IMG/VR virus record: IMGVR_UViG_3300028888_000127
Span: 3,964 to 67,963 of that record
Origin: a virus
Lineage: Duplodnaviria > Caudoviricetes
Reading direction: 5' to 3' (one strand)
DNA: 64,000 nt
Numbering within the stretch: position 1 is the stretch's first letter; each line of letters opens with the position of its first letter. The position numbers and the translations under genes are program-made. The notes beneath the pieces were generated by a model that was given only the letters and a program-made list of their open reading frames with translations, had not been told where the DNA came from and did not search any database. Positions 1-27,527 of this stretch are shown in pieces.

Positions 1-333
1 AATTTAATCACTAGAAATGATTACACAAGAGCTGAAGAATATTCACCAACACACCCAGACGCATTATCCACAGGTGACCCTCAAGGTAAAGGTACCGGAC
101 ATGGTGGACATACACACTCAATTCCTGATTGTACAGCGCCATCAACAATCAATTATTCAAACTTCGACACCAATGGAGGTGGAGGTGAATATGATATTAA
201 TGGAAGAAATGGCGTTGGCGGAAGAATTTTCTGTCAAAACATATCAATGTACAACGAATCAAACAGTTATTGTAATGTATCAATAGATACAAGTGCAAAT
301 GTAGCAGATGGACAAATAGTAATACCAGGTTAA
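1..333 (+). CDS. 3' part of a hypothetical (possibly virion) protein, truncated by the window edge
   Basis: Frame 1 is open from base 1 (NLITRNDYTRAEEYSPTHPDALSTGDPQGKG...DGQIVIPG*). Its TAA at 331-333 overlaps the next ATG (TAATG). It is not in the ORF track because it has no start inside the window. Confidence 0.8.
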   Translation, partial: NLITRNDYTRAEEYSPTHPDALSTGDPQGKGTGHGGHTHSIPDCTAPSTINYSNFDTNGGGGEYDINGRNGVGGRIFCQNISMYNESNSYCNVSIDTSANVADGQIVIPG

Positions 334-1190
334 TGAAAAAGAAAATAGAAAATATAAATGAGGCTTCTTCATTGTCTAAAAAAAGATTCGGAAAAGAAAC
401 TTGGCAATTAAGCAAAGAAGAGAAAATCCAATTTGCAATTGAAAATTGCCGTAGAATCCGAATTACTTATGACGATAAAAAAGGTGGAAAAGGTAAAAAT
501 ACAAGATACCTTTTGCCATTGGTATATGGTATTACAAAAAACGGGAAAAGTGCAATTAGGGCCTTTCAGACTTATGGCTCAACAAAAAGAGGTGTTCCAA
601 AATACAAACTATTCCTAACTGACAACATAGGACAAGTTGATTTAGGACGTGTAAAATATTATGATTATGAACAAGAATTACTAAGAACTGGATTTAACGA
701 TTCTGGAGATAAAGGATTCTCCGACATTTATTCGATAACTCCACTTGCAAGAAATTTCAATGGGGCAAATCTATCAAATCAAAATCAACCAATAGATTCA
801 AAACCGGTTCAAAAATCAGATATTGACAAAGGAGAAAAGCCACAAGCAACGACAATACATCAAACACAGCCAACACAAACAATAAATGTTGCGCAAAAAA
901 ATATTGACAATTTAGGGCAAAAAAGTTACTTTCAAAATAAAGTTGAGGCACCAGATACTGAGCCTGTTTCAAAAGGAGAAGTCGAAAACGGGGAAAATAT
1001 GCCACAACCAACACAGGTAAGCCAATCGCCAATTGATATTGGTGATGAAACGGAACCCGTAGAAAAATCAGATATCGAGCCTCAAATTAATACAGATAAT
1101 GTTTTATCTAAGTCTTATAAAGATATGATGGATAGAATGGATAATCTTTATAACGATGAAGATGAAGAAAATGATGAAGATAATTTATAA
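333..1190 (+). CDS. WYL-like domain protein with low-complexity acidic C-terminus
   Basis: The N-terminal RIRITYDD...RYLLPLVYG...IRAFQ...YKLFLTDNI resembles the WYL SH3-like pattern. The C-terminus has repeated PV(Q/S/E)K(S/G)(D/E)(I/V) units. Confidence 0.5.
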   Translation: MKKKIENINEASSLSKKRFGKETWQLSKEEKIQFAIENCRRIRITYDDKKGGKGKNTRYLLPLVYGITKNGKSAIRAFQTYGSTKRGVPKYKLFLTDNIGQVDLGRVKYYDYEQELLRTGFNDSGDKGFSDIYSITPLARNFNGANLSNQNQPIDSKPVQKSDIDKGEKPQATTIHQTQPTQTINVAQKNIDNLGQKSYFQNKVEAPDTEPVSKGEVENGENMPQPTQVSQSPIDIGDETEPVEKSDIEPQINTDNVLSKSYKDMMDRMDNLYNDEDEENDEDNL

Positions 1191-1195
1191 TTAAA

Positions 1196-1810
1196 ATGGC
1201 AGTTTCAAAACAACAATTAGCACAAATTATAGGAAAAGCAAGGGATTTATGTAATCCTGAAGGCGACAGGCTTGTTGAATCATATAAAGGTGATGGTATG
1301 GGCTCATATGACATGAACAATCCAGACCCGTCTCAATTCACTGATTATGAACAATTCGATAGAATGTATCTCAATGAAGAAGAGGATTATCAGCCGCAAA
1401 AAAGAAATGTTCAAACAAAAGACATTCGATATAATCAGCAAACGGCAGCAAATAGCAAAATGCCTGACAAAATCAAACAATCAATGCTTAATGAAGTCAT
1501 AGATGTAACTGCATTGGACAATCAGTCTGTTTTATCAGGAATGGAAATACCTGGCGGAAACAGAAAACCTAAACAAAGTAGAAGGCCCGTTAATGAACAA
1601 CAATATCAGGCACAAGGCGGAAACATTGACTATTCAATAATAAAAGCAATTGTAAATGAATGTCTTAATGAATATTTTTCAAGACAGCCGTTAAACGAAA
1701 GCAATTCAATAAGCACAATCGGGCTAAAAGCCGGCGCAATAAAGATTGTTGACAATAAAGGAAACGTTTATGCAGCTAAACTTGAAAAAATTGGAAATGC
1801 AAAAAATTAA
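1196..1810 (+). CDS. hypothetical protein
   Basis: 204 aa ORF in operon-like spacing with the upstream gene, followed by a terminator. Confidence 0.8.
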   Translation: MAVSKQQLAQIIGKARDLCNPEGDRLVESYKGDGMGSYDMNNPDPSQFTDYEQFDRMYLNEEEDYQPQKRNVQTKDIRYNQQTAANSKMPDKIKQSMLNEVIDVTALDNQSVLSGMEIPGGNRKPKQSRRPVNEQQYQAQGGNIDYSIIKAIVNECLNEYFSRQPLNESNSISTIGLKAGAIKIVDNKGNVYAAKLEKIGNAKN

Positions 1811-1831
1811 CGAAATAATTAATTTATAAAG

Positions 1832-1861
1832 AAAAGTCGGTCAGAAACGGCTGACTTTTTT
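1832..1861 (+). terminator. intrinsic (bidirectional-type) terminator, repeat family A
   Basis: AAAAGTCGGTCAGAAACGGCTGACTTTTTT; a near-identical copy lies at 23096-23126. Confidence 0.8.
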
Positions 1862-1872
1862 GTTTATAACAA

Positions 1873-1882
1873 ACTATTTATA
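1873..1882 (+). promoter_or_regulatory. putative late promoter motif ACTATTTATA
   Basis: The motif recurs on the coding strand shortly upstream of many start codons across the window. Confidence 0.6.
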
Positions 1883-1898
1883 AAGAAAAGTTTTAGAA

Positions 1899-2300
1899 AT
1901 GAGTAAAAAACAAGTAATTAAAATTAACGAAAATAAACTTAAACAGATAGTAATGGAGTCTGTGAAAAGGGTGCTAAAAGAAGAAGTTGATATTGGACAG
2001 ATTCTGTCTTCATATGATAATAAAGTTGCAAGACAGAATAGAATGAATCTTGAAAATCGCCCAGAAATAACCGCTGCCAGAAAAGAACTAAGACGTTTAA
2101 GAAATTCCATTGAAGATGTAGAACAAAAAGGTGGTGATATTACACCTATAAGACAAAAGATGATAAACATATCAAATCATTATTTTGATAGAAATTACAT
2201 TTGGCATTTGCAAAGAGGTGATAAATGGGTTGATTTCAAAGGCTGGTTTGATATTGACGGAAATCCTGCTCCAGGAAATGAAGAATTGGAATGGGATTAA
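1899..2300 (+). CDS. conserved-leader protein 1 (IKINENKLKQIVMESVKRVLKEE leader plus unique cargo)
   Basis: The N-terminal ~29 aa is shared with ORFs 2493-2774 and 26945-27277; the rest is unrelated. Confidence 0.85.
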   Translation: MSKKQVIKINENKLKQIVMESVKRVLKEEVDIGQILSSYDNKVARQNRMNLENRPEITAARKELRRLRNSIEDVEQKGGDITPIRQKMINISNHYFDRNYIWHLQRGDKWVDFKGWFDIDGNPAPGNEELEWD

Positions 2301-2425
2301 GCAGCGCACTTGACAACTTTAACTTCCTAGAATGTGACAACATTCAGGGCGTGTTCCATAATAGCAGCGAATCTTTCGCCGCACTTCTTTTTTCTAATTT
2401 TGTGCCATCATGTATATAGTTCCCT

Positions 2426-2456
2426 AAAAAAGTCGGCCATTTGACCGGCCTTTTTT
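2426..2456 (+). terminator. intrinsic terminator, direct repeat with 2776-2807
   Basis: AAAAAAGTCGGCCATTTGACCGGCCTTTTTT. Confidence 0.75.
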
Positions 2457-2465
2457 GTATTACTG

Positions 2466-2475
2466 ACTATTTATA
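2466..2475 (+). promoter_or_regulatory. putative late promoter ACTATTTATA
   Basis: ACTATTTATAAAGAAAAGTTTT is identical to the sequence starting at 1873. Confidence 0.6.
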
Positions 2476-2492
2476 AAGAAAAGTTTTGAAAA

Positions 2493-2774
2493 ATGAACAA
2501 GAAACAAAAAATTAGAATTAACGAGAACCAATTAAAGAAAATCGTTACGGAATCTGTGAAAAATGTTTTGAAAGAAGAACAAGAAAATACATATGAAACA
2601 TTAATAGAAATCATGAATAAACTTGATATGATTATGCATAGCGGATTTATACCATTTTCTTCACCAAGTCCATCATCGACAGAAAAAAAAGTCGCTGATT
2701 CAATAAGGCAAGCAAATGAATTATTAAAACAAGCCGCTATTGGTTGTAAACAATTAGGATATGGGCTTAATTAA
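2493..2774 (+). CDS. conserved-leader protein 2
   Basis: MNKKQKIRINENQLKKIVTESVKNVLKEE leader, with its own promoter motif and terminator. Confidence 0.85.
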   Translation: MNKKQKIRINENQLKKIVTESVKNVLKEEQENTYETLIEIMNKLDMIMHSGFIPFSSPSPSSTEKKVADSIRQANELLKQAAIGCKQLGYGLN

Positions 2775-2775
2775 G

Positions 2776-2807
2776 AAAAAAAAGTCGGCCATTTGACCGA
2801 CTTTTTT
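2776..2807. terminator. bidirectional terminator between convergent genes
   Basis: A-tract, AGTCGGCC/ATTT/GACCGACT hairpin, then T-tract; it abuts the polB stop codon. Confidence 0.85.
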
Positions 2808-4090
2808 ATGCTTCAGTTTCTACTTCATTTTCAAATTCAAGAGCATTTATTTTTTCTTCTTTGGCATCCAAAACATCAAGTATTGTACCGATTACAATGT
2901 CTTTATATTCTTTTGACATAAACTTTCCTGTCAATGGGTCAACATCAACAATTTCAAGCATTGCTTTTGGCATGTCTCCATCTTCAAAATCCTCAAGTTC
3001 TTCAAGAGTCATATTTGATACTATTTCATTGAATTTTGCCTTTACCTTATCAATTCCAAGTTGTCTTTCAATTTCCATTCTTTCAATGTAATCATTTTTG
3101 ATTTGTTCCCAATCCATTTCACAGTAATCCAAATACGGTGGTTCCCATTCAGGATGTGACATCCAAAACTTAATTTCCCTATCATCAAGAGTCATAAGTT
3201 GTTCATATGTGTCTTGGTCGGTTTCTTTATTTGGGAAGCCATTGCATAATTCACATTGGTCATATGTGAAATATTGTCTGTCATCAGGATTTGTAATTAG
3301 AATTTTATTTCTAATTTCAGGCCTGAAACAAACCAAAAGAGGTGTAATTCTTTTATTGAATTGGTCAATATACTTTTGTACATTATATTCTTCGCCCTCT
3401 TTACACATTATATCTTCTTCTGAATCAACAATTTCTCTTGGTACCAATTTGCAATTAAGTATTACCTCATCTTCGATTATAACATCTGAATGATGTTTTT
3501 TTACATAATCGTTAAATGACAAAGCACGTTCTTTTGGCGCTAACTTTCCATCAACATTGTTTTTTTTCCATTCTTTTTCCAATGCAACCCTGTAATCGGT
3601 TTTTTCTCCAAATAATCCGTCTACCTTATAATAATGTGTTACTTTTTTTGCATCAGTTTGTGACTTTGTTTTTCCGATATTGATATAATAAATTGTTTCA
3701 CCCATACTAACATTAAGATTTTCTCTTAATGCAAGTTCCATCCATGCTTGTCTTGATTTTGGCCTACCTGCTTTTGTTATTGTTTTGCAATCTTCAATAT
3801 ATTCATCCAATGATTTTTTAATTTTTCCTTTTGAAGCAATCATTTTCAATGGAATTTGATAATTGTAAATTTTTTCGATATAGTCATAATATGCTTCAAT
3901 AAAGTCTTGGCCTTTTTTGCGCAAAAGAAGTCTTATACCTTTTTCCAAGAATTTTGAAATATATTCAGGCATTTTTTTTGACTTAATTGTGTTACCAACC
4001 ATTTTAACATCCTTCGGAAATTCTTCATCAGGGAAATAGTCTGCATAGTTCTTTCTACTAAAGTTAATTGTTGCTGAAACAACTTCATCT
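2806..4090 (-). CDS. polB: family B DNA polymerase, C-terminal subunit exon 2
   Basis: The frame is open upstream of the tracked ATG to 4090: (I)DEVVSATINFSRKNYADYFPDEEFPKDVKMVGNTIKSKK (K-x-Y and palm/thumb region), then SKGKIKK and YNVQKYIDQF. Confidence 0.9.
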
Positions 4091-4407
4091 CATAATATAA
4101 CACTTTTATCTATATGTGTCTTTAAGACTATATCATCACCTTTTTTTAAAAAAGGGCCTCCCATTTCCACTTAATAGTGTACTTCCTTTCGGAATAGTCG
4201 TTGAACCTTTATCTCATTGAGATACTTGGCTGCTTTTAGTTGATTGTCCCATATATAAGGTTTTCACGGTTAAATTGGCATTGCCCAATCTTTTTTATCT
4301 ATATTACTATGATAAAATCGTACTTATATACTCGTTTTTTTTGGGATTTCCAGCAATTAGAGAGGTTATTGCCCTAACATCACTGTTAGGCGGCACAGAT
4401 TCTGTTT
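4091..4407 (-). mobile_element. group I intron (IA2-like, 317 nt, no ORF) in polB
   Basis: P1 is GGCAU/GUGCC with a U.G pair at the splice site. Also P2 CCUAACA-GUGA-UGUUAGG, AAUUGCUGGAAA (P), GCAGCCAAG (Q), GGUUCAACGACUA (R), P7.1 UUCC-GAAA-GGAA, GAUAUAGUC (S) and a terminal G at 4091. Splicing restores KMGLGI-DEVV in frame. Confidence 0.93.
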
Positions 4408-4715
4408 ATGCCAAGACCCATCTTGTTTACACAATTTGGGCCATAGTGGAAGTCTTTCATGAACAAATCATTGAATTCAGCAACATCTGCTTTGAACCCT
4501 ATATATTCAACATCTTTTTTCGTTTCCCTCGACAAGCCAGGGCTTATATATGGATGTTCTTTCGTATATCTGAATCTATCATCATCAGGTAATTTAAAGT
4601 TGAACCCATCAGTGTTTGAAATTGCATTACATCCAAGTGCGTTTACAACACTACCATCAAGTGATATATCGTAAACATAACTAGTTGTTTTTCCTTTGTT
4701 TTTAACTTTCATCAT
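4408..4715 (-). CDS. polB: split intein C-half (34 aa) fused to polB C-terminal subunit exon 1
   Basis: MMKVKNKGKTTSYVYDISLDGSVVNALGCNAISN|TDGFNF...KMGLGI. Intein blocks F/G end in Asn and the +1 residue is Thr of the polymerase DTD motif. Confidence 0.9.
4614..4715 (-). mobile_element. split intein, IntC
   Basis: VYDISLDG (block F), terminal SN (Ser instead of the usual His), followed by the Thr nucleophile. Confidence 0.88.
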
Positions 4716-4741
4716 TTATGCGATTTTTATAAAAGTACAAA

Positions 4742-6427
4742 TTATCTTTCGTTTTTCCAAACATATTTTATTAATCCGCAGTCATATATTTTATAATAGC
4801 CCAATTTTTCAGTCATTTCAGATTCTGTCATTGATAATTGGAAACCATATTTTTTGTGAAGTATTTGCTTTCTTAAATTAAATTTATGAACTCTTTTTTG
4901 CGTGAAATTTATGTTAACATATCTGTAATCAGGCGGAAGAATTTTAATTAGTTTAAATCCTATTTTTGTATATACATTGTTTTCATAATTAATCGTCCAT
5001 CTTCTATCAGCAAATGATTTAACTTCTTTTGGATTAAATATTTTTAAAAAATGCTTAAATAATTTACCGCCAACTCCACAGCAAACATAGTTATAATTTG
5101 TTGCAAATCTAATTAATTCCCATTCGTTATTGTTGTTTACTTTTTTAAATTGCATAACACCGACTAATTTATTTTCAAAAAAAGCTCCATAACTTACTGT
5201 AGAATTGCCATACCCTTGAATATGATATTCTGTTAAAAAGCATTTTGCTTCTTGTTTTGTAATCTCTTTTATTTCACAATTTCTTGCATATATTTTTTCT
5301 TTATTATTATTTAAGCCTAATATATGCTTTAATTTTTCTTTTACGATTTTATCATGGTATAGCCATTCATCTTCGAAAATATGTAATAGGTCTATCCCTT
5401 TATCTTTACATTGTTCAGTTTTAAGCAAATGATAATTTTTATCTTTGTTAAATAACTCAGAGTGCCATCTAATACCATCAAATTCTATAGCTATTTTTTT
5501 TTCAGGTATATATATGTCTAATTCTTTTGGCTTAATAACATTTCTGTTTCTTGTTTCAATTTTTCCTGTATATATTTCTTTTAAAAAACTTATAAGTTCT
5601 TCTTCCCCTGTTGATTTTGAATGCCCACATATTTGGCATCCACTGCCATGAATATGTGCATCTGGCGTTTGTAAAAATTCTCCATGTTTAGGACAAATTA
5701 TTGTTATATTGGATTTAGAATTAATATAGTTAACTTTTGAATAATCATACTTATCTCCATGTATTTCTTTTGCCTTTTTAACAAAATCATCAAGTTTCAT
5801 TGTCTCTGCAAAAGAAGCGTTAATTCTTCCACATTTAGGACATCCACATTTTAAATTATTATGTGCATATGGAGTTTGCCAAAACTCGCCATGCTCAGGA
5901 CATATGATGCAAACTTTAGTATTTGCATTAACATATTCTGTTTTTGAGTAGTCATATTTGTTTCCATGAACTTCTTTTGCTTTTTCTATAAAATCTTCTT
6001 TTTTAAATGAAAATAAAATCCTTTTTTTATTTGAAAAGCATTTTGGACAGCCATTACCATTTAAATGAGCATATGGTGCTTGACAAAATTCTCCATGTTC
6101 AGGACAAATTATACAGACTTTAGTCCTATTGTTTACATATTTCACTCTTGAATAATCATATTTTTCACCGTGTACTTTTTTTGCTTTTTCTATAAAATCT
6201 TCTTTATTATTTTTTTTTGCATTATTTGATTTTATATGGCCACATTTAGGACATCCACATTTTAAATTGTTATGCACATATGGAGTTTGCCAAAATTCAC
6301 CGTGCTCAGGACAAATTATACAAACTTTAGTATCACAATTTTTATAAATTACTTTTGAATAATCATATCTATTATTGTGAATTTCTTTTGCTTTATTAAT
6401 AAAAAATATATTTTTATTTTTTTCCAT
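4742..6427 (-). CDS. free-standing Hef-like homing endonuclease (4 Zn repeats, Vsr/PD-(D/E)XK nuclease, Mom-like GNAT domain)
   Basis: 4 x KAKxxHxxKYDYS...CPxHGEF..GCxxC; LDIYIPEKKIAIEFDGIRWHSE...HIFEDEW; IYARNC...ELIRF...SFADRRW...YTKIGF. Confidence 0.85.
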   Translation of the reverse strand: MEKNKNIFFINKAKEIHNNRYDYSKVIYKNCDTKVCIICPEHGEFWQTPYVHNNLKCGCPKCGHIKSNNAKKNNKEDFIEKAKKVHGEKYDYSRVKYVNNRTKVCIICPEHGEFCQAPYAHLNGNGCPKCFSNKKRILFSFKKEDFIEKAKEVHGNKYDYSKTEYVNANTKVCIICPEHGEFWQTPYAHNNLKCGCPKCGRINASFAETMKLDDFVKKAKEIHGDKYDYSKVNYINSKSNITIICPKHGEFLQTPDAHIHGSGCQICGHSKSTGEEELISFLKEIYTGKIETRNRNVIKPKELDIYIPEKKIAIEFDGIRWHSELFNKDKNYHLLKTEQCKDKGIDLLHIFEDEWLYHDKIVKEKLKHILGLNNNKEKIYARNCEIKEITKQEAKCFLTEYHIQGYGNSTVSYGAFFENKLVGVMQFKKVNNNNEWELIRFATNYNYVCCGVGGKLFKHFLKIFNPKEVKSFADRRWTINYENNVYTKIGFKLIKILPPDYRYVNINFTQKRVHKFNLRKQILHKKYGFQLSMTESEMTEKLGYYKIYDCGLIKYVWKNER

Positions 6428-6439
6428 TTTCGTTTTTTT

Positions 6440-6449
6440 TATAAATAGT
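6440..6449 (-). promoter_or_regulatory. putative late promoter ACTATTTATA
   Basis: Lies 13 nt upstream of the ATG at 6427. Confidence 0.6.
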
Positions 6450-6490
6450 TTATAATCCTAAATTATTAAACATTTTACCATCAAATCAAA

Positions 6491-8167
6491 TTATCTTTTG
6501 TTTTTCCAAATATATTTTAAAGTTCCGCAATCATATATTCTATACCACCCATTGTTTTCACAAAATTGTTTTTCTGTCATATTTTTAGGACATCCATATT
6601 TTTCAACTAAAATATTTTTCCTTAATGAAAATCTATTAATTCGTTTTTTATTTATAACATAAAAATAACTTGGTTCTGTTGTTCCATAAAATTCAAATCC
6701 AATGGCTTCATATAAGTTTCCATTCGACCATCTTCTATCGGCAAAAGTTTCAATTTTTAAAGGATTGTATTTTTCAATAAAATATTTAATCAATTTACTT
6801 GCTGCACCAATAACATTAAAATCTATCTTGTTACAAAATCGAATGAGTTCATAAGTGTTGTCTTCATTTTTTCTTGAAATGTTTATTCTTTTTTTGCCAA
6901 AAGTCATCAATGAAACTAATTCATCTTTATAATAAAGTCCAATTCTTATTTTTGACGGTACGTATCCTTGTAAATGATTTGTTTGTAAAAATAATTTACT
7001 GTCACTTAATGACACTTCTTTTATTTCACAATTCCTTGCGTATATTTTTTCGCTTGTTAAATGTAATATATTTCTTATTCTACTTTTGCAAATTTCATTT
7101 TTATACTTCCATTCATCTTCGAAAATATGAATTAGAGTAACATTTTTTTCTGCGCATTTTTCCGTTTTTAATAAATGATAATTTTTATTGTTTTCAAATT
7201 TTTCAGAATGCCAAATCAACCCATTCATTTCAAAGCCAATTTTATGCTTTGGTACATAGACATCTATTTCTTTTCCGTCTAATATGCTCCTATCATTTTC
7301 TACGATGGTTTCGTTTGGTAATATTTCTTGTATAAACTCTAACAATTCTTTTTCCACAAAAGATTTATCTTTAAAGCATTTAGGACAGCCTTCGCCAAAA
7401 ATATGGTTTCTTGCTATTTGCGAAAATTCTCCATGAATAGGGCAAATTATAGTAACATTATTTTTACTGTTAGTATAATCAACTTTGGAATAATCATATT
7501 TATTACCATGTGTTATTTTTGCCTTTTCAATAAATTCTTCTGTTGTTAATGTTTTCTCTCCTGAAGTTTTTTCATGCCCACAAATAGGACACCCTTGTTT
7601 CCCTTTTATGTGGTTGTTGAATGTTTGATAAAAAACTCCATGTTGTTTACATATAATAGGATATTTTTCTCTATCATTTTTATATTCAGTAATTAACGAA
7701 TAATCATATTTATTTCCGTGAATTTCTTTAGCCAGAGAAATGACATCTTCAAGGCTTCTTCTTTTACCATTTGCTGATTTTATATATCTACACTTTGGGC
7801 AGCCTTCACCGGAAAGCAAATGTCCTGGCACTATTTCGAAATCTCCATGGTCTTTACATGTAACAACTATTTTTGTCTTATTGTTTATATATTCAACTTT
7901 GTCAAATGAATAATTAGAGCAATGTTCCAATTTTGATACTTTCTCTATGAATCTTTTTGTGTCATATCTGCCTTTATTACTACAGAATGGACATCCTTGT
8001 TTCCTACTTATGTGGTGTTCAAAATCCTTATAAAAAACGCCATGCTCTTTGCATATTATAGGGTTTTTTATTTTCATTCCTCTATATTCATTAATCAATG
8101 AATAATCATAAGCATTGTTATGAATTTCATTTGATTTTGTAATTAAATCGTTTAATTTGTTTTCCAT
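6491..8167 (-). CDS. second Hef-like homing endonuclease (same architecture)
   Basis: 4 Zn repeats; IDVYVPKHKIGFEMNGLIWHSE...HIFEDEW; YELIRFCNK...TFADRRWSNGNLYEAIGF. Confidence 0.85.
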   Translation of the reverse strand: MENKLNDLITKSNEIHNNAYDYSLINEYRGMKIKNPIICKEHGVFYKDFEHHISRKQGCPFCSNKGRYDTKRFIEKVSKLEHCSNYSFDKVEYINNKTKIVVTCKDHGDFEIVPGHLLSGEGCPKCRYIKSANGKRRSLEDVISLAKEIHGNKYDYSLITEYKNDREKYPIICKQHGVFYQTFNNHIKGKQGCPICGHEKTSGEKTLTTEEFIEKAKITHGNKYDYSKVDYTNSKNNVTIICPIHGEFSQIARNHIFGEGCPKCFKDKSFVEKELLEFIQEILPNETIVENDRSILDGKEIDVYVPKHKIGFEMNGLIWHSEKFENNKNYHLLKTEKCAEKNVTLIHIFEDEWKYKNEICKSRIRNILHLTSEKIYARNCEIKEVSLSDSKLFLQTNHLQGYVPSKIRIGLYYKDELVSLMTFGKKRINISRKNEDNTYELIRFCNKIDFNVIGAASKLIKYFIEKYNPLKIETFADRRWSNGNLYEAIGFEFYGTTEPSYFYVINKKRINRFSLRKNILVEKYGCPKNMTEKQFCENNGWYRIYDCGTLKYIWKNKR

Positions 8168-8215
8168 AGCATTATTTATATATAAATATCCAAATAATCC
8201 AAAAAAGCAATTATT

Positions 8216-8785
8216 TTATTGTACATTTTTTAGAAATTGTAATCCGGCTAAACATGTTTTTGAAAATTTTACGTTTTCATCATAATTTTCCATGAAAATT
8301 TTATAAAAAAGTTTTTTATATGATTCTGAATAATTAAGTACTTTTTGTGGAACCCTATCTATTTCTCCTTTTGCAAGTGCAATTGCAGACTCATGGATAT
8401 ATTTTCCTTGGCTCGCAAGATATCTTATATTAGGAAAATCTATTTTTCCGTTAAAATATTCAAGTTTAGTATTGTCTGTTATTTCAGAAGGCTTGATTTT
8501 TTCTTTATTTGAATCAAACAGGCTATGGTCTTCTGTGACTTCAACAAACATTTCTCCATCTGAAATTTCATAAATATCCTTATCCGTTTTATGCCTATAA
8601 ATATAAGATGGCTCTACCCATCCACTTCTACATAATACATAATATGGTTTTTCCCCATAATCGTATTCACGGCCTAATTCATCAATGCTAATTTGACTTT
8701 CATCAATAAGTTCACATATAGGAACAATGTCAATAAGCCCTGTTTCTTTGTACTTAATAAACAACGGCGTATCTTCTGTAAAAGA
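8216..8785 (-). mobile_element. split intein, IntN (189 aa)
   Basis: Block A SFTEDTPLFIK and block B VEVTEDHSLF. There is no intein C-terminus before the stop codon. Confidence 0.9.
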
Positions 8786-10786
8786 ATCTCCAACAATTGG
8801 TTGATATCCAAGTTTTGTAAACCAATAAATCATTAGTCTAAGTGCCATTCTACCGGTACAAGTTGTTCTCTCAGCGCAAGCAATAGAAGCCCACGGAAAA
8901 ACATTAGGTGCACCATAAGAACCAAAAAATGAATTGCCAAAAATTTTCAGAGGTAACTGTTTTTTATCATTTGCAGATTCCTCTTGTGCAGCATCCAACA
9001 TTTTCCTGTTAAGTTCGTCTTTTAAATGTAAATCCGAACAAGATTCTATTTCTTTTTTATATTTGTCTTTTTCTTTACCTGCTTTTTTCTTTAAATCTTT
9101 ATATTTTTCACGCTGTGTTAAAACGTGTTCCAAGAAATAAAGCATAGAATGAAGCAAATCTTTTGCATCAGTGATACCCCAAGTAAGAATTATTGATGGA
9201 TAAAGTGAATTATAGTCAAATTTTGCAACATTGTCAACGAATCCAACTTTAAGAAGACGTGAAAGTCCACCTGTGAAAGTTTTTCTTTCTGAAAATTGAG
9301 GGATTGCCAAGTTGTTTTCATAACTCCAAGCAAGCATAATTGATTTCCACTGGCCAGCTGTACCCATTGTACAGCACTTGTCAAATGGAACAGGAATCAT
9401 TTTACAAATAAGGAAGTTTGGTGTGTTGTAACGATGTTCCACCATGTCACATTCCCACAAGTCATCAAGCAAATATTTTTGTCCTATATATTTTCCGTCA
9501 ACAACTTTATATCCTTCCAAAAGTTTGTTCTTTGTGTAAAGGACAAAAGTTGGGTTGTCTTTTCCTTTTTTCAATAATAGTTCTTCACTTTCACAAGAAT
9601 GATTTTCATCATATATATACCAATCACCTGTTTCATCGTTAATTGCAAATTTCCTATCATTATCATTCCAAATGTCTGAAATTTTATCACCCGGTATGTA
9701 AACACGGTTTTCTTTAATCAAATCTGAATACTTACTAACATACTTCAAATTTGAGAAAAGCATATTTGAATCCAATGCTTGTGCTCTTCTAACAGCATGC
9801 AAAGAATCGGTGATTATTATATTTGGAACAATAGTTTTATTGAATTTTTCAATTTCGCCACCTAATTTCAAAATTGACTCACGTTCATCTTTTCTGATTG
9901 ACTCTCCATTGAAAAATTTCTTTGATAGTTCTTCAAGAGAAGTTCCAAGTCTTTCACAAGCGCCAATAATTAACTGCCAGTCAAATGCCTCTCCATTATG
10001 TGCAGTAATTACATCGGGCCTAAAAGTATAAATTATTTTTAAAAATGTTATAATGCCATTTAATTCTGAAATATTTTTTTCTTCTTCAGTATTACCTTCA
10101 ACATTAATTAATTTTTCAAATTTAATATATTCCCCTTTATATTTTACAGGGCGATTAAATCTTATACCAAACTGTTCTATTCTATCCTTTTTTGTGTTAA
10201 GACCAGTTGATTCCAAGTCGAATATAAGTCTTAAAATATCATTATAATCCTCATACCCCTTAAAGAACCTCTTTCCTGTTGAAATCATGAATTGCTCTTT
10301 GGGCGTAACAGTTAAATACTGTTTTTCTTCATTTTTTTGGGTTCCACCTTTGTCATCTTTCTTTTTTCTACTCGAAACAGGATTTCCTGCTTTTTTGAAA
10401 AAGTCCAAAAAGTCAGAATAACTCATCGGTACTGTTGCATAGAACAAATATGTATATCCATTCTTAATTTCTTCTACAACTTCACCATCAGAATTTGTCA
10501 CATCAAGTGCCTTAACCCATATTCTATATTTTTTTAGCAGATATCTTACTTTTTGTTTATCACCATCACATAGCCTTTTGCAAGCCTTTTCTGTCGCCCA
10601 CAAAAACGGCATAAATGGTTCTTGAGAAACACATTTGTCATCGTTTTCGTTTCTGTAAAATACTGTTATGAAATTATTTTGATATTTGTAATCAAGGTTT
10701 ACAATTCTTTCTTGTTCGTCTCTACCATTTAAAAACGTACTGATTACTTCAGGAGTAATCTCTTTTTTAATAAAATTTTGCCCCAT
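8216..10786 (-). CDS. polB: family B DNA polymerase N-terminal subunit (3'-5' exonuclease, motifs A and B) fused to split intein N-half
   Basis: ExoI LIFDLESTG, ExoII AHNGEAFD, motif A KFDYNSLYPSII, motif B KIFGNSFFGSYG, then YQPIVGD|SFTEDTP (intein start). Confidence 0.93.
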   Translation of the reverse strand: MGQNFIKKEITPEVISTFLNGRDEQERIVNLDYKYQNNFITVFYRNENDDKCVSQEPFMPFLWATEKACKRLCDGDKQKVRYLLKKYRIWVKALDVTNSDGEVVEEIKNGYTYLFYATVPMSYSDFLDFFKKAGNPVSSRKKKDDKGGTQKNEEKQYLTVTPKEQFMISTGKRFFKGYEDYNDILRLIFDLESTGLNTKKDRIEQFGIRFNRPVKYKGEYIKFEKLINVEGNTEEEKNISELNGIITFLKIIYTFRPDVITAHNGEAFDWQLIIGACERLGTSLEELSKKFFNGESIRKDERESILKLGGEIEKFNKTIVPNIIITDSLHAVRRAQALDSNMLFSNLKYVSKYSDLIKENRVYIPGDKISDIWNDNDRKFAINDETGDWYIYDENHSCESEELLLKKGKDNPTFVLYTKNKLLEGYKVVDGKYIGQKYLLDDLWECDMVEHRYNTPNFLICKMIPVPFDKCCTMGTAGQWKSIMLAWSYENNLAIPQFSERKTFTGGLSRLLKVGFVDNVAKFDYNSLYPSIILTWGITDAKDLLHSMLYFLEHVLTQREKYKDLKKKAGKEKDKYKKEIESCSDLHLKDELNRKMLDAAQEESANDKKQLPLKIFGNSFFGSYGAPNVFPWASIACAERTTCTGRMALRLMIYWFTKLGYQPIVGDSFTEDTPLFIKYKETGLIDIVPICELIDESQISIDELGREYDYGEKPYYVLCRSGWVEPSYIYRHKTDKDIYEISDGEMFVEVTEDHSLFDSNKEKIKPSEITDNTKLEYFNGKIDFPNIRYLASQGKYIHESAIALAKGEIDRVPQKVLNYSESYKKLFYKIFMENYDENVKFSKTCLAGLQFLKNVQ

Positions 10787-10837
10787 TTGAAATAGCCAAA
10801 TCCCTTGGCATGCTTATTCGCTGTTATTTTTATACTA

Positions 10838-11353
10838 TTATAGTACATTAATCATATAGTCCCTTACCCTTCCAAGGACTTTTCCTAAAAGATTTTTACC
10901 TTTCCAATTTGATTCATCGTCTATAATTGGGTTATTCCATTCAATACCGCAACCCCATATAAAATCATATTTAGAACCTTCAACAAAAGTCTTATCTAAC
11001 AAGTCTCGTCTTGTAATCAATCGTGCCAAATATTCATTTTGGCAAAATTTTGCAAGTACAACATTATACATTATGTCTTCGCAAACCTCAGACCATTGTT
11101 CTGAATTAAAATTTTTAACTTGCCTACCCAATTCCTTTGCCTCTTTTGGCGTTTTTGCCTTTAAGATAAGTTCTGCAATTTCATTGTCTTTGAAAAACAA
11201 CGCTTTTTCATACATAAACGCTTGTTCAGAAGATTTAAATTCAATTCCTAAATATGTAAACTTGCATCCATGAAAGTTTGAGAATTCAGAACCCCAAAAC
11301 GCAACGTGATTGTCATAAACAATAAAACCGTCTCTTTCAAAATTTTGTCCCAT
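10838..11353 (-). CDS. NADAR family protein (YbiA/DUF1768-like ADP-ribosylhydrolase)
   Basis: FSNFH...FKSSEQAFMYEKA...PKEAKELGR...EGSKYDFIWGCG...GKNLLGKVL. Confidence 0.88.
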   Translation of the reverse strand: MGQNFERDGFIVYDNHVAFWGSEFSNFHGCKFTYLGIEFKSSEQAFMYEKALFFKDNEIAELILKAKTPKEAKELGRQVKNFNSEQWSEVCEDIMYNVVLAKFCQNEYLARLITRRDLLDKTFVEGSKYDFIWGCGIEWNNPIIDDESNWKGKNLLGKVLGRVRDYMINVL

Positions 11354-11389
11354 AATTAAAATTTTATTTTTTACATATTTTACAAAAAA

Positions 11390-11788
11390 TTATTTGAATT
11401 TCCAACCATACAAGTTCAATTTATCTTCAACTGAATAGTAAGATTCTCCAAAATGCATAGTTAATCTGCCATGTTGCGGATATTCTTCTAGGTTTTCTAT
11501 ATTAAGCCATGTTAGCGCCAATATTCCATAAGTTGCATACTCCATTGAATAGCAAGATGTTTCTTCTGCCGTTGTGAATGGTAAATCTGTTATTGCCTGT
11601 TTTACAACCGAATATGTAGTTGAATCTGGCGTTATATCTCCATTACTGCTTGGATTGTCAACGTCCCATGACGGGCCCCATACATATTCAGGCGTTTCAC
11701 TGAAGAAAAAATTATAGACATAAGTTCCATCAGTATTTTTCCCCAAATATTTTACATAAACCAATTTTAAATTATCTTCTTTTTCCAT
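11390..11788 (-). CDS. hypothetical protein, paralogue of 11964-12449
   Basis: YLGKNTDGTYVYNFFF..VWG / CYSME / HFGE aligns with YIGRTIDGQYIYRFDF..VWG / CFSMQ / KFGE. Confidence 0.8.
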   Translation of the reverse strand: MEKEDNLKLVYVKYLGKNTDGTYVYNFFFSETPEYVWGPSWDVDNPSSNGDITPDSTTYSVVKQAITDLPFTTAEETSCYSMEYATYGILALTWLNIENLEEYPQHGRLTMHFGESYYSVEDKLNLYGWKFK

Positions 11789-11803
11789 TTTTAAAATTAT
11801 TAA

Positions 11804-11971
11804 TTAAAATAATATTTTCATGCGTTTTGTTTTCAATTTGTACTTATTAAGACTTCTTTTAATCATTGATTTACTATGGACCCACGGCCTTGTTTCCTTA
11901 AACATAAAATTGTCAATTGGTTCTTTAAAATAATGTGACTCTCCTTCTTCTAAACTATATATACTAATCAT
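11804..11971 (-). CDS. small hypothetical protein (55 aa), not in the ORF track
   Basis: MISIYSLEEGESHYFKEPIDNF...KRMKILF*. It fills the gap between its neighbours and its ATG overlaps the upstream stop (ATGATTAG). Confidence 0.55.
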   Translation of the reverse strand: MISIYSLEEGESHYFKEPIDNFMFKETRPWVHSKSMIKRSLNKYKLKTKRMKILF

Positions 11972-12449
11972 CTCCATTTATTAAATCAATATTATCAATC
12001 AAATCATCAATTGCGCTCTCATCACCTTTTTTAACGTCTTCAATATCATATAATTCAATGTTTATTGATTGAAGTGTTTCTTTTATTGTTTCAAAATTTT
12101 CTCCAAATTTAAAGAACAAAGGAGCGTCTTTATATTCAATTCCTTCTTCTGAAATTTCAGAAAATATCAAAGGGATTATTCCATCAATACAATCTTGCAT
12201 TGAAAAACAATAGTTTTTCTTAGCCAATTGCATTTCTGTTGGAAAATTTACCTTACAACTTTTCGATAATGAATTTATATCAGGTTGCAAATCTGGAACT
12301 ATTCCAGCCGGTGTTACATTGAAGTATTCACCCCACACACTATCAGCATCCACAGTAAAATCAAACCTGTAAATATATTGGCCATCTATGGTTCTACCAA
12401 TGTAATCAACGAATGCTAGGTATTCCTCCATGTTTCGGTTTATTTTCAT
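11964..12449 (-). CDS. hypothetical protein, paralogue of 11390-11788
   Basis: See the paralogue; the start may be the ATG at 12431. Confidence 0.8.
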   Translation of the reverse strand: MKINRNMEEYLAFVDYIGRTIDGQYIYRFDFTVDADSVWGEYFNVTPAGIVPDLQPDINSLSKSCKVNFPTEMQLAKKNYCFSMQDCIDGIIPLIFSEISEEGIEYKDAPLFFKFGENFETIKETLQSINIELYDIEDVKKGDESAIDDLIDNIDLINGDD

Positions 12450-12786
12450 CCTTATTCATTGAATAATACTCTGCTGTCTTTTTACATGCTTCGGCAACCT
12501 TATCATCTGATGAAACTATTGATGAATAGTAGTTTCTGTATGTCTGCAATATTTCTTTCGGTATGAACGGGCCGTTCCATTCTCCGCAATCTTTCATAAC
12601 CCTGCAAATAATAGCAAAAGCGGCGGTCTCAAACTCTTGTGCATTAGACTCTTCTTTCAATATGTAATTTGCCATCTTGCTATACATTTTTGCAACATTC
12701 TTTTTCTTTACTTCGTCAGTCTTAAAAGGTTCAAGTAACCCTGTCTGTTCCCATATTTCATAATTATCTTCGTCAAACATAATCAA
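12406..12786 (-). CDS. small protein resembling the major-capsid N-terminal segment (family member 1)
   Basis: WEQTGLLEPF...NVAKMY...FETAAFAIICRV. Confidence 0.5.
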   Translation of the reverse strand: MIMFDEDNYEIWEQTGLLEPFKTDEVKKKNVAKMYSKMANYILKEESNAQEFETAAFAIICRVMKDCGEWNGPFIPKEILQTYRNYYSSIVSSDDKVAEACKKTAEYYSMNKDENKPKHGGIPSIR

Positions 12787-13163
12787 TACCTGTATATTTT
12801 ACTGTCCGCATAATAATCAGTTGTATTTTTTATTGCAACACTATCATTATTATTTGCGGTTATTAATTCATTATCATAGTGTGAGTGTATTTCACTTGGA
12901 TTAAACCTAAACTTTTTCCAATCACCATCACGCCTTATAACATTGTTTACAATTATCAAAGCAGCCCATCCAAACATGGTATCGCCAAGATTATTGTTAT
13001 AAATATAACTTATAATTTTTTTAAAATAAGTTATCATTTTTCTTTTAACTTTTTTGTTTTCATTATTAATCATTAAAACGTCTTCCAAAACTTTATTGTT
13101 TTCTGAACTTGTACAATTTTGCATATTATATCCATGCCCTTCTAAAGTCTCAATCATGTTCAT
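12783..13163 (-). CDS. small hypothetical protein (divergent family member 2)
   Basis: Similar size and helix pattern; C-terminal DSVAIKNTTDYY. Confidence 0.6.
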   Translation of the reverse strand: MNMIETLEGHGYNMQNCTSSENNKVLEDVLMINNENKKVKRKMITYFKKIISYIYNNNLGDTMFGWAALIIVNNVIRRDGDWKKFRFNPSEIHSHYDNELITANNNDSVAIKNTTDYYADSKIYRY

Positions 13164-13173
13164 ATAAAATCCA

Positions 13174-13404
13174 TCACTTTTTAAATTTTTTTATAAATTT
13201 CCACTTACTGCATATATATGGCCTCTTGTTTTGTTCACGCAATTTATTTGCGTCTTCAACTTTAACGCCTAACAAATTCATTCTCTCGCTTCCGAAAAAC
13301 CTTGAATATGCCATGCGTTTTATTCGCTCTTCAAATTCGGGTGAGATTGAGCCATCCACAATTACAATTATAGAATCAATGAATTTTGCCTGTTCCTCAT
13401 TCAT
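13174..13404 (-). CDS. hypothetical protein
   Basis: Tightly packed ORF overlapping the upstream stop (ATGA). Confidence 0.65.
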   Translation of the reverse strand: MNEEQAKFIDSIIVIVDGSISPEFEERIKRMAYSRFFGSERMNLLGVKVEDANKLREQNKRPYICSKWKFIKKFKK

Positions 13405-13679
13405 TCATCTTCCTCCATTTCATCTAACGCTATCCATTTGAATAATCCAATCTCCCAATACTTATAGGTTTTGTTACGTGTCTTGAATACACATACGCCG
13501 TATGTTGGCTCAATTCCGTTTAACGTTTCGTAAAAAGTTCTGTTTCCACGATATATTGATGCGGTATTTGGCTGTATTCCTCCAAGGTATTTATGTCCCT
13601 CTTTAAGTTTGAAAGCCGCTTTATACCAACCAATTATTGAAAAGACAAATTTAACTATGTAATATTTAATTTTTTTCAT
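13401..13679 (-). CDS. hypothetical protein
   Basis: Packed ORF in the minus-strand operon. Confidence 0.65.
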   Translation of the reverse strand: MKKIKYYIVKFVFSIIGWYKAAFKLKEGHKYLGGIQPNTASIYRGNRTFYETLNGIEPTYGVCVFKTRNKTYKYWEIGLFKWIALDEMEEDE

Positions 13680-14019
13680 TTTTATAAAATCTTTTTTCCA
13701 TAAAATAACATGTTGTCATTGCACATGCATTAGCTTCAATGTCTTCAAATTTTGACCCTTCTAATTTATCAAGGAAAAAATCAAATTTCTGTTTACATTC
13801 ATCAAAATCAAAATCAGAAAAGTCATAATTTCTTATAACAAGTCTTTTTAGTATTGCAAAAACAACATTATCAAAGTTGTTATCATATTCTTTTTCGCCT
13901 TTCAAAAAATAATCAACAGATTTATTAAACCATATTTTAAACATTTCTTTTTGCCTTTCGTTAAGTGAATCACTTAACATATCACTAATTTCATTAAATT
14001 TTTCCATATTACTTTTCAT
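13666..14019 (-). CDS. small protein, family member 3
   Basis: FDNVVFAILKRLV...DIEANACAMTTCYF matches FETAAFAIICRV...DKVAEACKKTAEYY. Confidence 0.65.
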   Translation of the reverse strand: MKSNMEKFNEISDMLSDSLNERQKEMFKIWFNKSVDYFLKGEKEYDNNFDNVVFAILKRLVIRNYDFSDFDFDECKQKFDFFLDKLEGSKFEDIEANACAMTTCYFMEKRFYKNEKN

Positions 14020-14020
14020 T

Positions 14021-14980
14021 TTATTTTTTAATTATCTTCATTAAAAATTCTTTTATTAATTTAATATCATATGTGTTATTTTCGTTATAAATTTCTTCAT
14101 TTTTATTACTATAGTTTTTATTAATTATATACAAAATTCTTATTCCATTATTTTCACATAGTTTCTTTTTGTTTTTATCTCTTTCTACTATAGTTTCCAA
14201 ATCTTCCCATAATTTTGAGCCAATAAAATGTTGTTTTCCTTGACACTCAATTGCTGTTTTATAGTCTGGTAAATAAAAATCTAAACTTAGTTTTCCTAAA
14301 AAATCAAATCGTTGTTGCTCTGTAAAATTAATGTTTAATTCTTGTAATATCATTCTAATTCTTTTTTCTAATACTGAATTACATTTACATTTTGGACATC
14401 CTTCTCCTTTTAAATGATTATGTGGCAACTGTTTAAAATCTCCGTGAATTTGGCATGTAATTATTACATTTTCTTTACTGTTTTTATATATTGTTTTTTC
14501 GTAGTTATATAAATCCCCATGTATTTTTCTTGCACGTTCTATAAATTTATTAGTATTCAAGCATAAATTATGAGTTGAATATCCAAATGTTAAATGATTG
14601 TTTGGAGTTTGCCAAAACTCTCCAATTTCAACGCCATATGCATCTTTTTCATGTGATATTATGCATACTTTTTCATTACTTTTAACATAATTAACTTTTG
14701 AATAGTCAAATTTATTGCCATACTTTTTGATGGCTTTTTTTATAAAACTTTCAGTATTCTCTCTTAAATTTTTGCCTTCTTTTATCCATCCGCATTTATG
14801 GCATCCATATTTTCTACATAAATGGTCATTTGGCTTCATCCAAAATTCTCCATGCTCAGGACATATTATGCAAACTTTTGTTTTTGTGTTTACATATTCA
14901 ACTTTAGAATAATCATATTTATCACCATGGATATCTTTTGCTTTCTTAATAAATTCAGAATTTGTTAATTTTTTAGGCAT
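14021..14980 (-). CDS. Zn-repeat Vsr/DUF559-like homing endonuclease (no GNAT domain)
   Basis: 3 KAKxIHGDKYDYS..CPxHGEF repeats; LSLDFYLPDYKTAIECQGKQH...DKNKKKLCENNGIRIL. Confidence 0.8.
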   Translation of the reverse strand: MPKKLTNSEFIKKAKDIHGDKYDYSKVEYVNTKTKVCIICPEHGEFWMKPNDHLCRKYGCHKCGWIKEGKNLRENTESFIKKAIKKYGNKFDYSKVNYVKSNEKVCIISHEKDAYGVEIGEFWQTPNNHLTFGYSTHNLCLNTNKFIERARKIHGDLYNYEKTIYKNSKENVIITCQIHGDFKQLPHNHLKGEGCPKCKCNSVLEKRIRMILQELNINFTEQQRFDFLGKLSLDFYLPDYKTAIECQGKQHFIGSKLWEDLETIVERDKNKKKLCENNGIRILYIINKNYSNKNEEIYNENNTYDIKLIKEFLMKIIKK

Positions 14981-23126: not shown

Positions 23127-23179
23127 GTTTTAATTTAATATTTATTGTATGATAAAGTTAAAATAAATGTTATTCAACC

Positions 23180-27499: not shown

Positions 27500-27527
27500 A
27501 AAAGGCTGATTGCTAGTCAGCCTTTTT
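27500..27527. terminator. terminator; direct repeat with 26889-26916
   Basis: AAAAGGCTGATTGCTAGTCAGCCTTTTT (1 mismatch). Confidence 0.85.

Follow-up and report, generated by a model that had tools for sequence, protein, structure and literature searches.

The window analysed here, 64,000 nucleotides (nt) of a tailed phage (Duplodnaviria; Caudoviricetes; positions 3,964 to 67,963 of IMG/VR record IMGVR_UViG_3300028888_000127), carries on its minus strand a family B DNA polymerase (PolB) gene, polB, that is broken into three pieces. The record is 67,963 bp long, its CheckV completeness of 19% implies a phage of about 350 kb, and near-identical DNA is present in sheep, goat and bovine gut metagenomes. 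An initial annotation, made from the sequence alone, had read an N-terminal polymerase half ending in YQPIVGD and extended by a 189-amino-acid (aa) tail, taken as the N-terminal half of a split intein (IntN), a 34-aa C-terminal intein half (IntC) fused to TDGFNF, and two endonuclease genes of about 560 aa between them. The corresponding open reading frames (ORFs) are present on the minus strand, where the locus is laid out as follows (HE, homing endonuclease; extein, polymerase sequence flanking the intein):

8216-10786, minus strand: P0001, 856 aa, the PolB N-terminal half with the 189-aa tail.
8786-10786, minus strand: PolB N-extein, residues 1-667, with the exonuclease domain and the polymerase motifs as far as ...YQPIVGD, whose last residue is motif C's first Asp.
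8453-8785, minus strand: IntN splicing region, about 110-111 aa, with Ser1 block A SFTEDTPLFI, NX motif YIYRHKT and block B VTEDHSLF.
8216-8452, minus strand: C-terminal tail of IntN, about 78 aa and a stop, a helical remnant of the second LAGLIDADG half-domain.
6491-8167, minus strand: P0002 (HE1), 558 aa, free-standing putative homing endonuclease gene 1.
6440-6449, minus strand: promoter-like 10-mer ACTATTTATA, upstream of HE2.
4742-6427, minus strand: P0003 (HE2), 561 aa, free-standing putative homing endonuclease gene 2.
4386-4715, minus strand: P0004, 109 aa, the 34-aa IntC followed by TDGFNFKLP; leaves the polymerase frame after ...NKMGLGI.
4614-4715, minus strand: IntC, 34 aa, with block F YVYDISLDG and block G ...NAISN, followed by Thr+1.
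4408-4613, minus strand: C-extein exon 1, TDGFNF...NKMGLG and the first two bases of an Ile codon.
4091-4407, minus strand: group I intron, 317 nt, without an ORF, placed by intron-less alleles, with a match to Rfam RF00028 below the gathering score.
2806-4002, minus strand: P0005, 398 aa, in which the C-terminal end of the polymerase resumes.
2806-4090, minus strand: C-extein exon 2, DEVVSATINFSRKNYA..., which contains the KxY motif and runs to the stop.

P0001 matches both DNA_pol_B and DNA_pol_B_exo1 of Pfam and, past YQPIVGD (residue 667), continues as SFTEDTPLFIKY... for 189 residues more, and the IntC of P0004 ends in ...YVYDISLDGSVVNALGCNAISN immediately before TDGFNFKLP. The pieces of the split polB contain neither frameshifts nor internal stops.

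Contiguous polB alleles, the comparison suggested with the initial annotation, exist at two related loci (L003 and L004), each of which encodes one uninterrupted PolB of 1163 aa, reading ...YQPIVGDTDGFNFQLP... and ...NKMGLGIDEVVSATINFSRKNYA..., and whose N-exteins are 98% (98.5% over residues 1-667) and 88% identical to that of the window. Because L003 and L004 read through both sites without interruption, the intein can be placed after D667, that is, between D667 and the Thr of motif C (GD|TD), and the intron at 4091-4407. Joining exon 1, including IntC (4408-4715), to exon 2 (2806-4090) in silico produced an open C-terminal precursor of 530 aa, and when both intron and intein were removed in silico, the 667-aa N-extein and the 496-aa C-extein together gave 1163 aa with GD|TD rebuilt, exactly as had been predicted from the window. 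This rebuilt polymerase aligns to both alleles without gaps and is identical to that of L003 at 1130 of 1163 positions (97.2%); exon 1 corresponds collinearly to residues 668-736 in L003 and L004, and the exon 2 region is 96% identical to L003, again gap-free.

These comparisons bear on whether the gene is dead or decaying, with some other polymerase in use, or whether the split is an assembly artefact and the true gene contiguous. Both possibilities seem to us very unlikely: the record is a 68-kb fragment covering an estimated 19% of the genome, such that a second polymerase could lie elsewhere, and so close a relative as L003 has a contiguous gene, but the window's reading frames are intact, its exteins agree with those of an intact allele at 97% of residues, and the same architecture occurs in 39 loci and 1755 protein clusters. 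Misassembly, which the initial annotation had itself named as a reason for doubt, is unlikely because contigs from two DNA studies, one of sheep and an independent one of goat, span the junctions (IntN stop/HE1, HE1/HE2, HE2/IntC and both intron borders), and because the same truncated N-half recurs in those 1755 clusters. The bridging contigs differ from the window at zero to two positions, and many of the contig joints listed within the endonuclease genes stem from paralogues and repeats. The sheep run contained 94% of the sampled window words and may be the source sample.

Nucleotide identity between the window exteins and L003:10001-13492 is 0.93-1.0 over most of the N-half and drops to 0.83-0.89 in a stretch of approximately 450 nt surrounding the sites of intein and intron, a mosaic that suggests recombination or co-conversion tracts. 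A second dip, to 0.78, falls separately at extein nt 2701-2850 and complicates a reading in terms of co-conversion.

Conserved residues and a modelled fold mark the inserted sequence as a genuine class 1 Ser1/Thr+1 intein of the pol-c allele, with a predicted Hint fold. The pol-c site is YGD/TDS, between the Asp and Thr of PolB motif C (PMC549080), and the insertion in the window, IVGD|TDGF, fits this site. The 189-aa tail matches 1755 protein clusters, and the 120 best matches listed are all PolB N-halves (768-910 aa) that cover 98-100% of it, with the junction GD|SF[TSA]xDTP in 118 of the 120. Similarly, IntC matches 456 clusters of C-halves, in which it opens at its own ATG and keeps a length of 33-34 aa; its end is SN|T in most relatives and HN, KN, CN, KQ or another Q variant in a few, so that the terminal residue is Asn in nearly all and only rarely Gln. 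In a joint alignment of 26 sequences, residues S1, Y63, R64, H65, T84, D86, H87 and S88 are invariant. The segment YIYRHKT, upstream of block B, contains the NX motif (a His after Arg or Lys) and aligns with the corresponding KH of PDB entry 9hth; an NX motif of the R64-H65 type is a signature of Ser1/Ser(Thr)+1 inteins (PMC10189870). Ser1, considered unusual in the initial annotation, is the norm of its class when combined with Thr+1 and the NX-motif His (PMC10189870), and the penultimate Ser, singled out for the same reason, is the majority state in the family, in which His, Lys, Cys and Arg form the minority. A search of the alignment profile against the PDB recovered 9hth (E 7.5e-6) along with TFIIB mini-inteins and, weakly, PI-PkoII.

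Structural models point in the same direction. The AlphaFold (AF2) model of IntN has a predicted local distance difference test score (pLDDT) of 89.4, and its best PDB matches by Foldseek are almost all inteins (the top 13 without exception, at probabilities of 0.85-1.0), including Mja TFIIB, NeqN/NeqC (TMt 0.67-0.73), PolB16, TliVMA and PI-PfuI. Prediction of a complex between IntN (residues 655-856) and IntC (1-60) scored 0.89, against 0.00 for the best of three controls; among 80 solved complexes, 58 attained this mark, as did 2 of 110 mismatched pairs. Contacts agree between the three complex runs to at least 73%, the partner pLDDT is at least 59, and all 34 IntC residues lie within the predicted IntN interface. 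The models thus support an association between IntN and IntC, with the proviso that solved split-intein complexes exist and that passing this test may reflect likeness to them and not binding.

The two halves might conceivably associate and yet never be ligated, the intein pieces acting as a non-covalent clasp that holds together a heterodimeric enzyme in which the Hint domain is retained. What lends this some substance is a close relative, L002:10001-15296 (IMGVR_UViG_3300028591_000072; N-extein identity 96%), whose polB breaks 9 residues downstream of GD|TD, a single endonuclease gene separating the halves. Its N-terminal tail resembles IntN over the first 37 or so residues only (hhalign 85%, E 5.9e-6), and in it Ser1 is replaced by Lys and TxxH is missing; its C-terminal leader ends in ...GLNVEK without a terminal Asn, and just two more clusters have this tail. 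L002 probably has a two-subunit polymerase that does not splice and keeps relics of an intein. Intein-less splits are also known in T4-like gp43 and Aeh1 NrdA (cited in PMC2677866; PMC3045599). However, L002 differs from the window in keeping motif C whole on its N-half: the window is cut between the two Asp residues of motif C, and an unspliced complex would have some 220 residues of intein lodged in its active site. Moreover, all of the catalytic residues for splicing are conserved across hundreds of clusters, which a mere clasp would not need, and we consider such an arrangement unlikely for the window.

The tail of P0001 is more than a simple IntN. Its length of 189 aa was as annotated, but TEDHSLF, which had been taken as its end, lies at tail residues 84-90, and for the last 79 or so residues the counterpart is the second half-domain of a LAGLIDADG endonuclease, where they align to the segments 'kiP..iLN...FL' and 'SK..aG..fL' of contiguous inteins in five other loci (L026, L038, L039, L044 and L052). 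This remnant is conserved among relatives; in the models, P0001 residues ~779-856 are helical, with helices at tail residues 126-188, and in the predicted complex IntC is contacted by residues 843-851. Because the remnant aligns to endonuclease segments, the break is placed inside a decayed LAGLIDADG domain, and such a position is what the gene-breaking model proposes, in which an endonuclease invades the endonuclease region of an intein (Dassa et al., 2009; PMC2677866).

How this arrangement is distributed is evident from 49 loci in which both ends could be classified, 39 of them split and 10 contiguous:

7 loci: split, with no endonuclease gene of the HE1/HE2 family in the gap.
24 loci: split, with one endonuclease gene.
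6 loci, the window included: split, with two endonuclease genes.
2 loci: split, with three endonuclease genes.
10 loci: contiguous intein at the same site.

One to three endonuclease genes thus occupy the gap in 32 of the 39 split loci and two or three in 8 of the 39, and introns occur at or near the place of the window's intron in 4 of the 39, such that neither the second endonuclease nor the additional group I intron is the peculiarity that they had been taken for. The contiguous inteins measure 264-359 aa, belong to undivided PolB ORFs of about 1382-1512 aa, in some cases have two LAGLIDADG motifs, and end in AHN|T, LKN|T, CSN|T or VAQ|T. The seven split loci without endonuclease genes (L010, L011-L013, L016, L020 and L022) are later stages of the gene-breaking model; their gaps consist of 170-960 nt or of 4.6 kb of other genes, and in L020 and L022 only 170-270 nt, free of endonuclease genes, separate the halves, with just a 60-aa endonuclease fragment in the gap of L022. 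The IntN of each split locus resembles its window counterpart more closely than the N-extein does (for example 67 vs 42%, 73 vs 43% and 78 vs 55%), a pattern that fits purifying selection on splicing, lateral spread, or both.

The same intein family extends beyond this polymerase lineage. In a T4-like PolB (L061:8588-12226), YGD|TDS is occupied by an unsplit LAGLIDADG intein of the family that ends in LHN|T, and because this polymerase has no similarity to the window N-extein that tblastn could detect, the family is common to unrelated phage PolB lineages at the pol-c site. Megablast and tblastn searches against GenBank phages yielded nothing beyond matches to the intron core, distant PolBs of Salinibacter phages and, for IntN, a single weak match in an uncultured phage, and tblastn of the window IntN against 50,697 phage records matched no isolate phage.

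The second interruption of the gene, 206 nt into the C-extein, has the features of a group I intron, in keeping with the initial annotation. When the 401-nt stretch around it was searched alone, it matched the full Intron_gpI model of Rfam (RF00028, positions 1-253) at 34.5 bits (E 2.8e-7). A P1 helix can be formed by GGCAU/GUGCC pairing with a U.G wobble at the 5' splice site, the intron ends in ...UAUUAUG with a terminal G, and its removal restores GLGI|DEVV exactly in frame, as in intron-less alleles. A homologous intron lies at the same place in L017, and the two differ by compensatory double changes in P2 (C-G to U-A and C-G to A-U), which offer limited support as two sequences are compared. 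A homologous core is also present in L019 (13800-14140), inserted 27 nt further downstream than in the window, and L020 (12890-13215) has another group I intron near the window's site, which makes this stretch of polB a recurrent intron target. Unannotated stretches of Staphylococcus, Bacillus and Lak phages, probably introns as well, match the core of the window's intron (~4122-4209) at 81-92% identity.

The presence of this intron raises the question of whether the entire 3.5-kb gap might be removed as one large RNA intron with endonuclease ORFs inside it, leaving a contiguous cis-splicing intein. Group I introns are frequent in gut jumbo phages (PMC12880540), one is situated 200 nt downstream of the gap, and our first Rfam pass missed even the real intron. 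However, the spacers between IntN and HE1, HE1 and HE2, and HE2 and IntC measure 48, 63 and 26 nt, and these 137 nt of non-coding DNA in total are too little for a ribozyme core, leaving no room for one between IntN and IntC. In addition, IntN closes with a stop, IntC opens at its own ATG with its length conserved at 33-34 aa, and the split persists in L020 and L022 with their short, endonuclease-free gaps. That the gap is spliced out of the RNA seems to us scarcely credible.

Between the intein halves, P0002 and P0003 are, from profile matches and conserved residues, putative homing endonucleases of the EDxHD/Vsr-like family, with lengths consistent with those given to them at the outset. Both match PHROG 559 and 3339 over their full length (E 1e-99 to 1e-157; for PHROG 559, E 1.8e-138 for P0002 and 1.5e-157 for P0003) as well as Pfam DUF723. 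Their placement in the family of PMC3239194 follows from the match of the endonuclease family profile to the catalytic domain of I-Bth0305I (3r3p; E 1.1e-5) together with the invariance of E300, D302, H320 and D351 of P0002; phmmer of P0002 against the PDB gave no match, and a profile search was needed. The N-terminal part of both proteins consists of four zinc-ribbon repeats (DUF723/DUF4379), not of NUMOD or helix-turn-helix (HTH) motifs, and the C-terminal 180 or so residues (6494-7030 and 4745-5300, minus strand) match the phage Mu Mom/GNAT fold (8bv8, E 1.8e-8; VIA Z 12-13), a domain that may serve in DNA binding, base flipping or modification. In Foldseek and VIA-align searches with a 294-aa endonuclease model, GNAT matches filled the lists, so that residues 1-110 were barely probed. 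The two proteins, 45% identical over their full length (BLASTP), are old paralogues and not the result of a recent duplication, and L014 has an HE1-type followed by an HE2-type gene, in the same order as in the window.

Three further endonuclease paralogues occur in the window, bringing the number of copies to five in 64 kb; one is truncated (~290 aa), one apparently frameshifted, and one full length (52% identical to P0003):

14123-14977, minus strand: endonuclease paralogue.
23174-24927, plus strand: endonuclease paralogue.
27525-29168, minus strand: endonuclease paralogue.

The initial annotation had also assigned each endonuclease gene its own promoter motif. This is borne out for HE2, where an exact ACTATTTATA (6440-6449) lies 13 nt upstream of the start codon, but not for HE1, which, like the IntC gene, has looser variants only. 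There are 8 exact copies of ACTATTTATA in the window (at 1873, 2466, 6440, 27379, 30306, 46289, 47498 and 58369), and a looser pattern has 20 matches in the window against 10.9 expected; the motif is a candidate phage promoter element.

The locus is very probably a fractured family B polymerase gene of an uncultured ruminant-gut jumbo phage, with a split pol-c intein, two endonucleases and an intron, whose product would depend on both RNA splicing and protein trans-splicing. In the sequence of events that we propose, the intron would self-splice from the mRNA to allow synthesis of the 530-aa C-terminal precursor, and IntN and IntC would dock into a single Hint fold. Ser1 would then undergo an N-O acyl shift, the N-extein would pass to Thr+1, and Asn34 would cyclise, releasing the 1163-aa polymerase with an intact GDTD motif and LGYQPIVGDTDGFNFK as the ligation junction peptide. 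The endonucleases would be selfish passengers, which most likely cut alleles lacking the intein or the endonucleases and thereby spread the whole cassette. Double splicing might also be a timing device, along the lines of the regulatory switch suggested in the initial annotation, in which the polymerase becomes active only after intron splicing and slow Ser1/Thr+1 trans-splicing with a penultimate Ser, and the strongly conserved LAGLIDADG remnant has been co-opted for docking or control, but we hold this to be improbable.

Several observations weigh against a spliced polymerase as described above. Neither IntN nor IntC was recognised by Pfam (E<=10), PHROGs or phmmer against the PDB, and as the libraries miss them, evidence was drawn from relatives, for which profiles were needed; the Foldseek E-values for the IntN model are weak (~1e-2). 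The penultimate residue of IntC is Ser in place of the His that usually helps Asn to cyclise, a residue that is frequent, but not obligatory, in inteins. As for the intron, its Rfam score of 34.5 is below the gathering score of 50, a search of window positions 1-14000 (E<=1) missed it, and among the 15 joints listed for contigs of two RNA runs there was no 4408|4090 joint, although cover was patchy and uninformative either way. Finally, L002 apparently persists as two genes whose intein ends are devoid of all nucleophiles, making non-covalent assembly conceivable in this lineage.

The layout of the window polB is common in related phages and of a kind already published, and its particulars (two Mom-domain endonucleases, the remnant and the intron) all recur. 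Fractured genes with split inteins and free-standing Vsr-like or GIY-YIG endonucleases have been described for gp41-1, NrdJ-1, IMPDH-1, DnaE and others (PMC2677866), and as in those genes, the host gene of the window is broken at the intein, with ORFs on the same strand and an endonuclease gene in the gap. The window differs in that its host protein, a family B polymerase, is absent among the eight host enzymes of that paper, in having two endonucleases and a LAGLIDADG remnant on IntN, and in coming from the gut and not from a marine source. Closer in host gene is the case of the Pseudomonas jumbo phage MIJ3 / PA5oct (Imam et al., 2019; PMC6892783), where two genes make up PolB, with a putative Ser1 intein split between them and an endonuclease gene in the gap. 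The MIJ3 intein has block B VTEDHS and block F VYDI, as in the window, but MIJ3 has one HNH endonuclease, ends in ...VHN|S and has no reported intron (PMC6892783), and the sequence kinship of the two is remote, given that no isolate phage was matched in the tblastn search with IntN described above.

Among inteins of cellular and metagenomic origin, the Neq Pol intein of Nanoarchaeum equitans (Choi et al., 2006, as cited in PMC2677866; 5oxz) is likewise a naturally split Ser1 intein of a family B polymerase, but comes from an archaeal thermophile and has its genes far apart, with no endonuclease between them and no LAGLIDADG remnant. PolB16 OarG, from a sheep gut metagenome (PMC10189870; 8cpn, 8cpo), resembles the window intein in habitat, PolB host type, Ser1 oxyester and NX-motif His, and its trans-splicing has been shown experimentally (PMC10189870); it is inserted two residues further (GDTD|S, with Ser+1) and is atypically split into 15 + 168 aa, compared to a conventional split into 189 + 34 aa and Thr+1 in the window. 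The archaeal and Mimivirus pol-c cis-inteins (PMC549080; PI-PkoII, 2cw7) have the identical insertion point, and PI-PkoII a weak profile match, but these are contiguous and have an active or intact LAGLIDADG domain. As to the endonucleases, the nuclease core of the window's enzymes matches that of I-Bth0305I, the EDxHD prototype (PMC3239194; 3r3p), with E, D, H and D kept. I-Bth0305I is itself intron-encoded, with N-terminal NUMOD/HTH repeats and the nuclease at its C terminus, unlike the window's enzymes, which have the four DUF723 zinc-ribbon repeats and the additional Mom/GNAT-like C-terminal domain. The Jug phages of the gut (~360-400 kb; PMC12880540) have many short group I introns, shown to splice, as well as endonucleases and inteins, and endonuclease genes often divide their DNA polymerase genes (PMC12880540); in the part of that paper available, the polymerase split is not described as a split intein.

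Few naturally split, cysteine-independent inteins are available from mesophiles, and the family to which this intein belongs adds a very large natural group to them. The window pair is a reasonable candidate for an orthogonal split intein, as had been put forward initially, with an IntC that, at 34 aa, is within reach of peptide synthesis and with natural variants in their hundreds to draw on for protein-ligation engineering. A single set of loci displays the stages of gene breaking, from empty alleles and contiguous LAGLIDADG inteins, by way of a decayed domain, to split genes with one to three endonucleases and split genes with none. For annotation, this arrangement explains the fragmented appearance of the polymerase in abundant gut jumbo phages.

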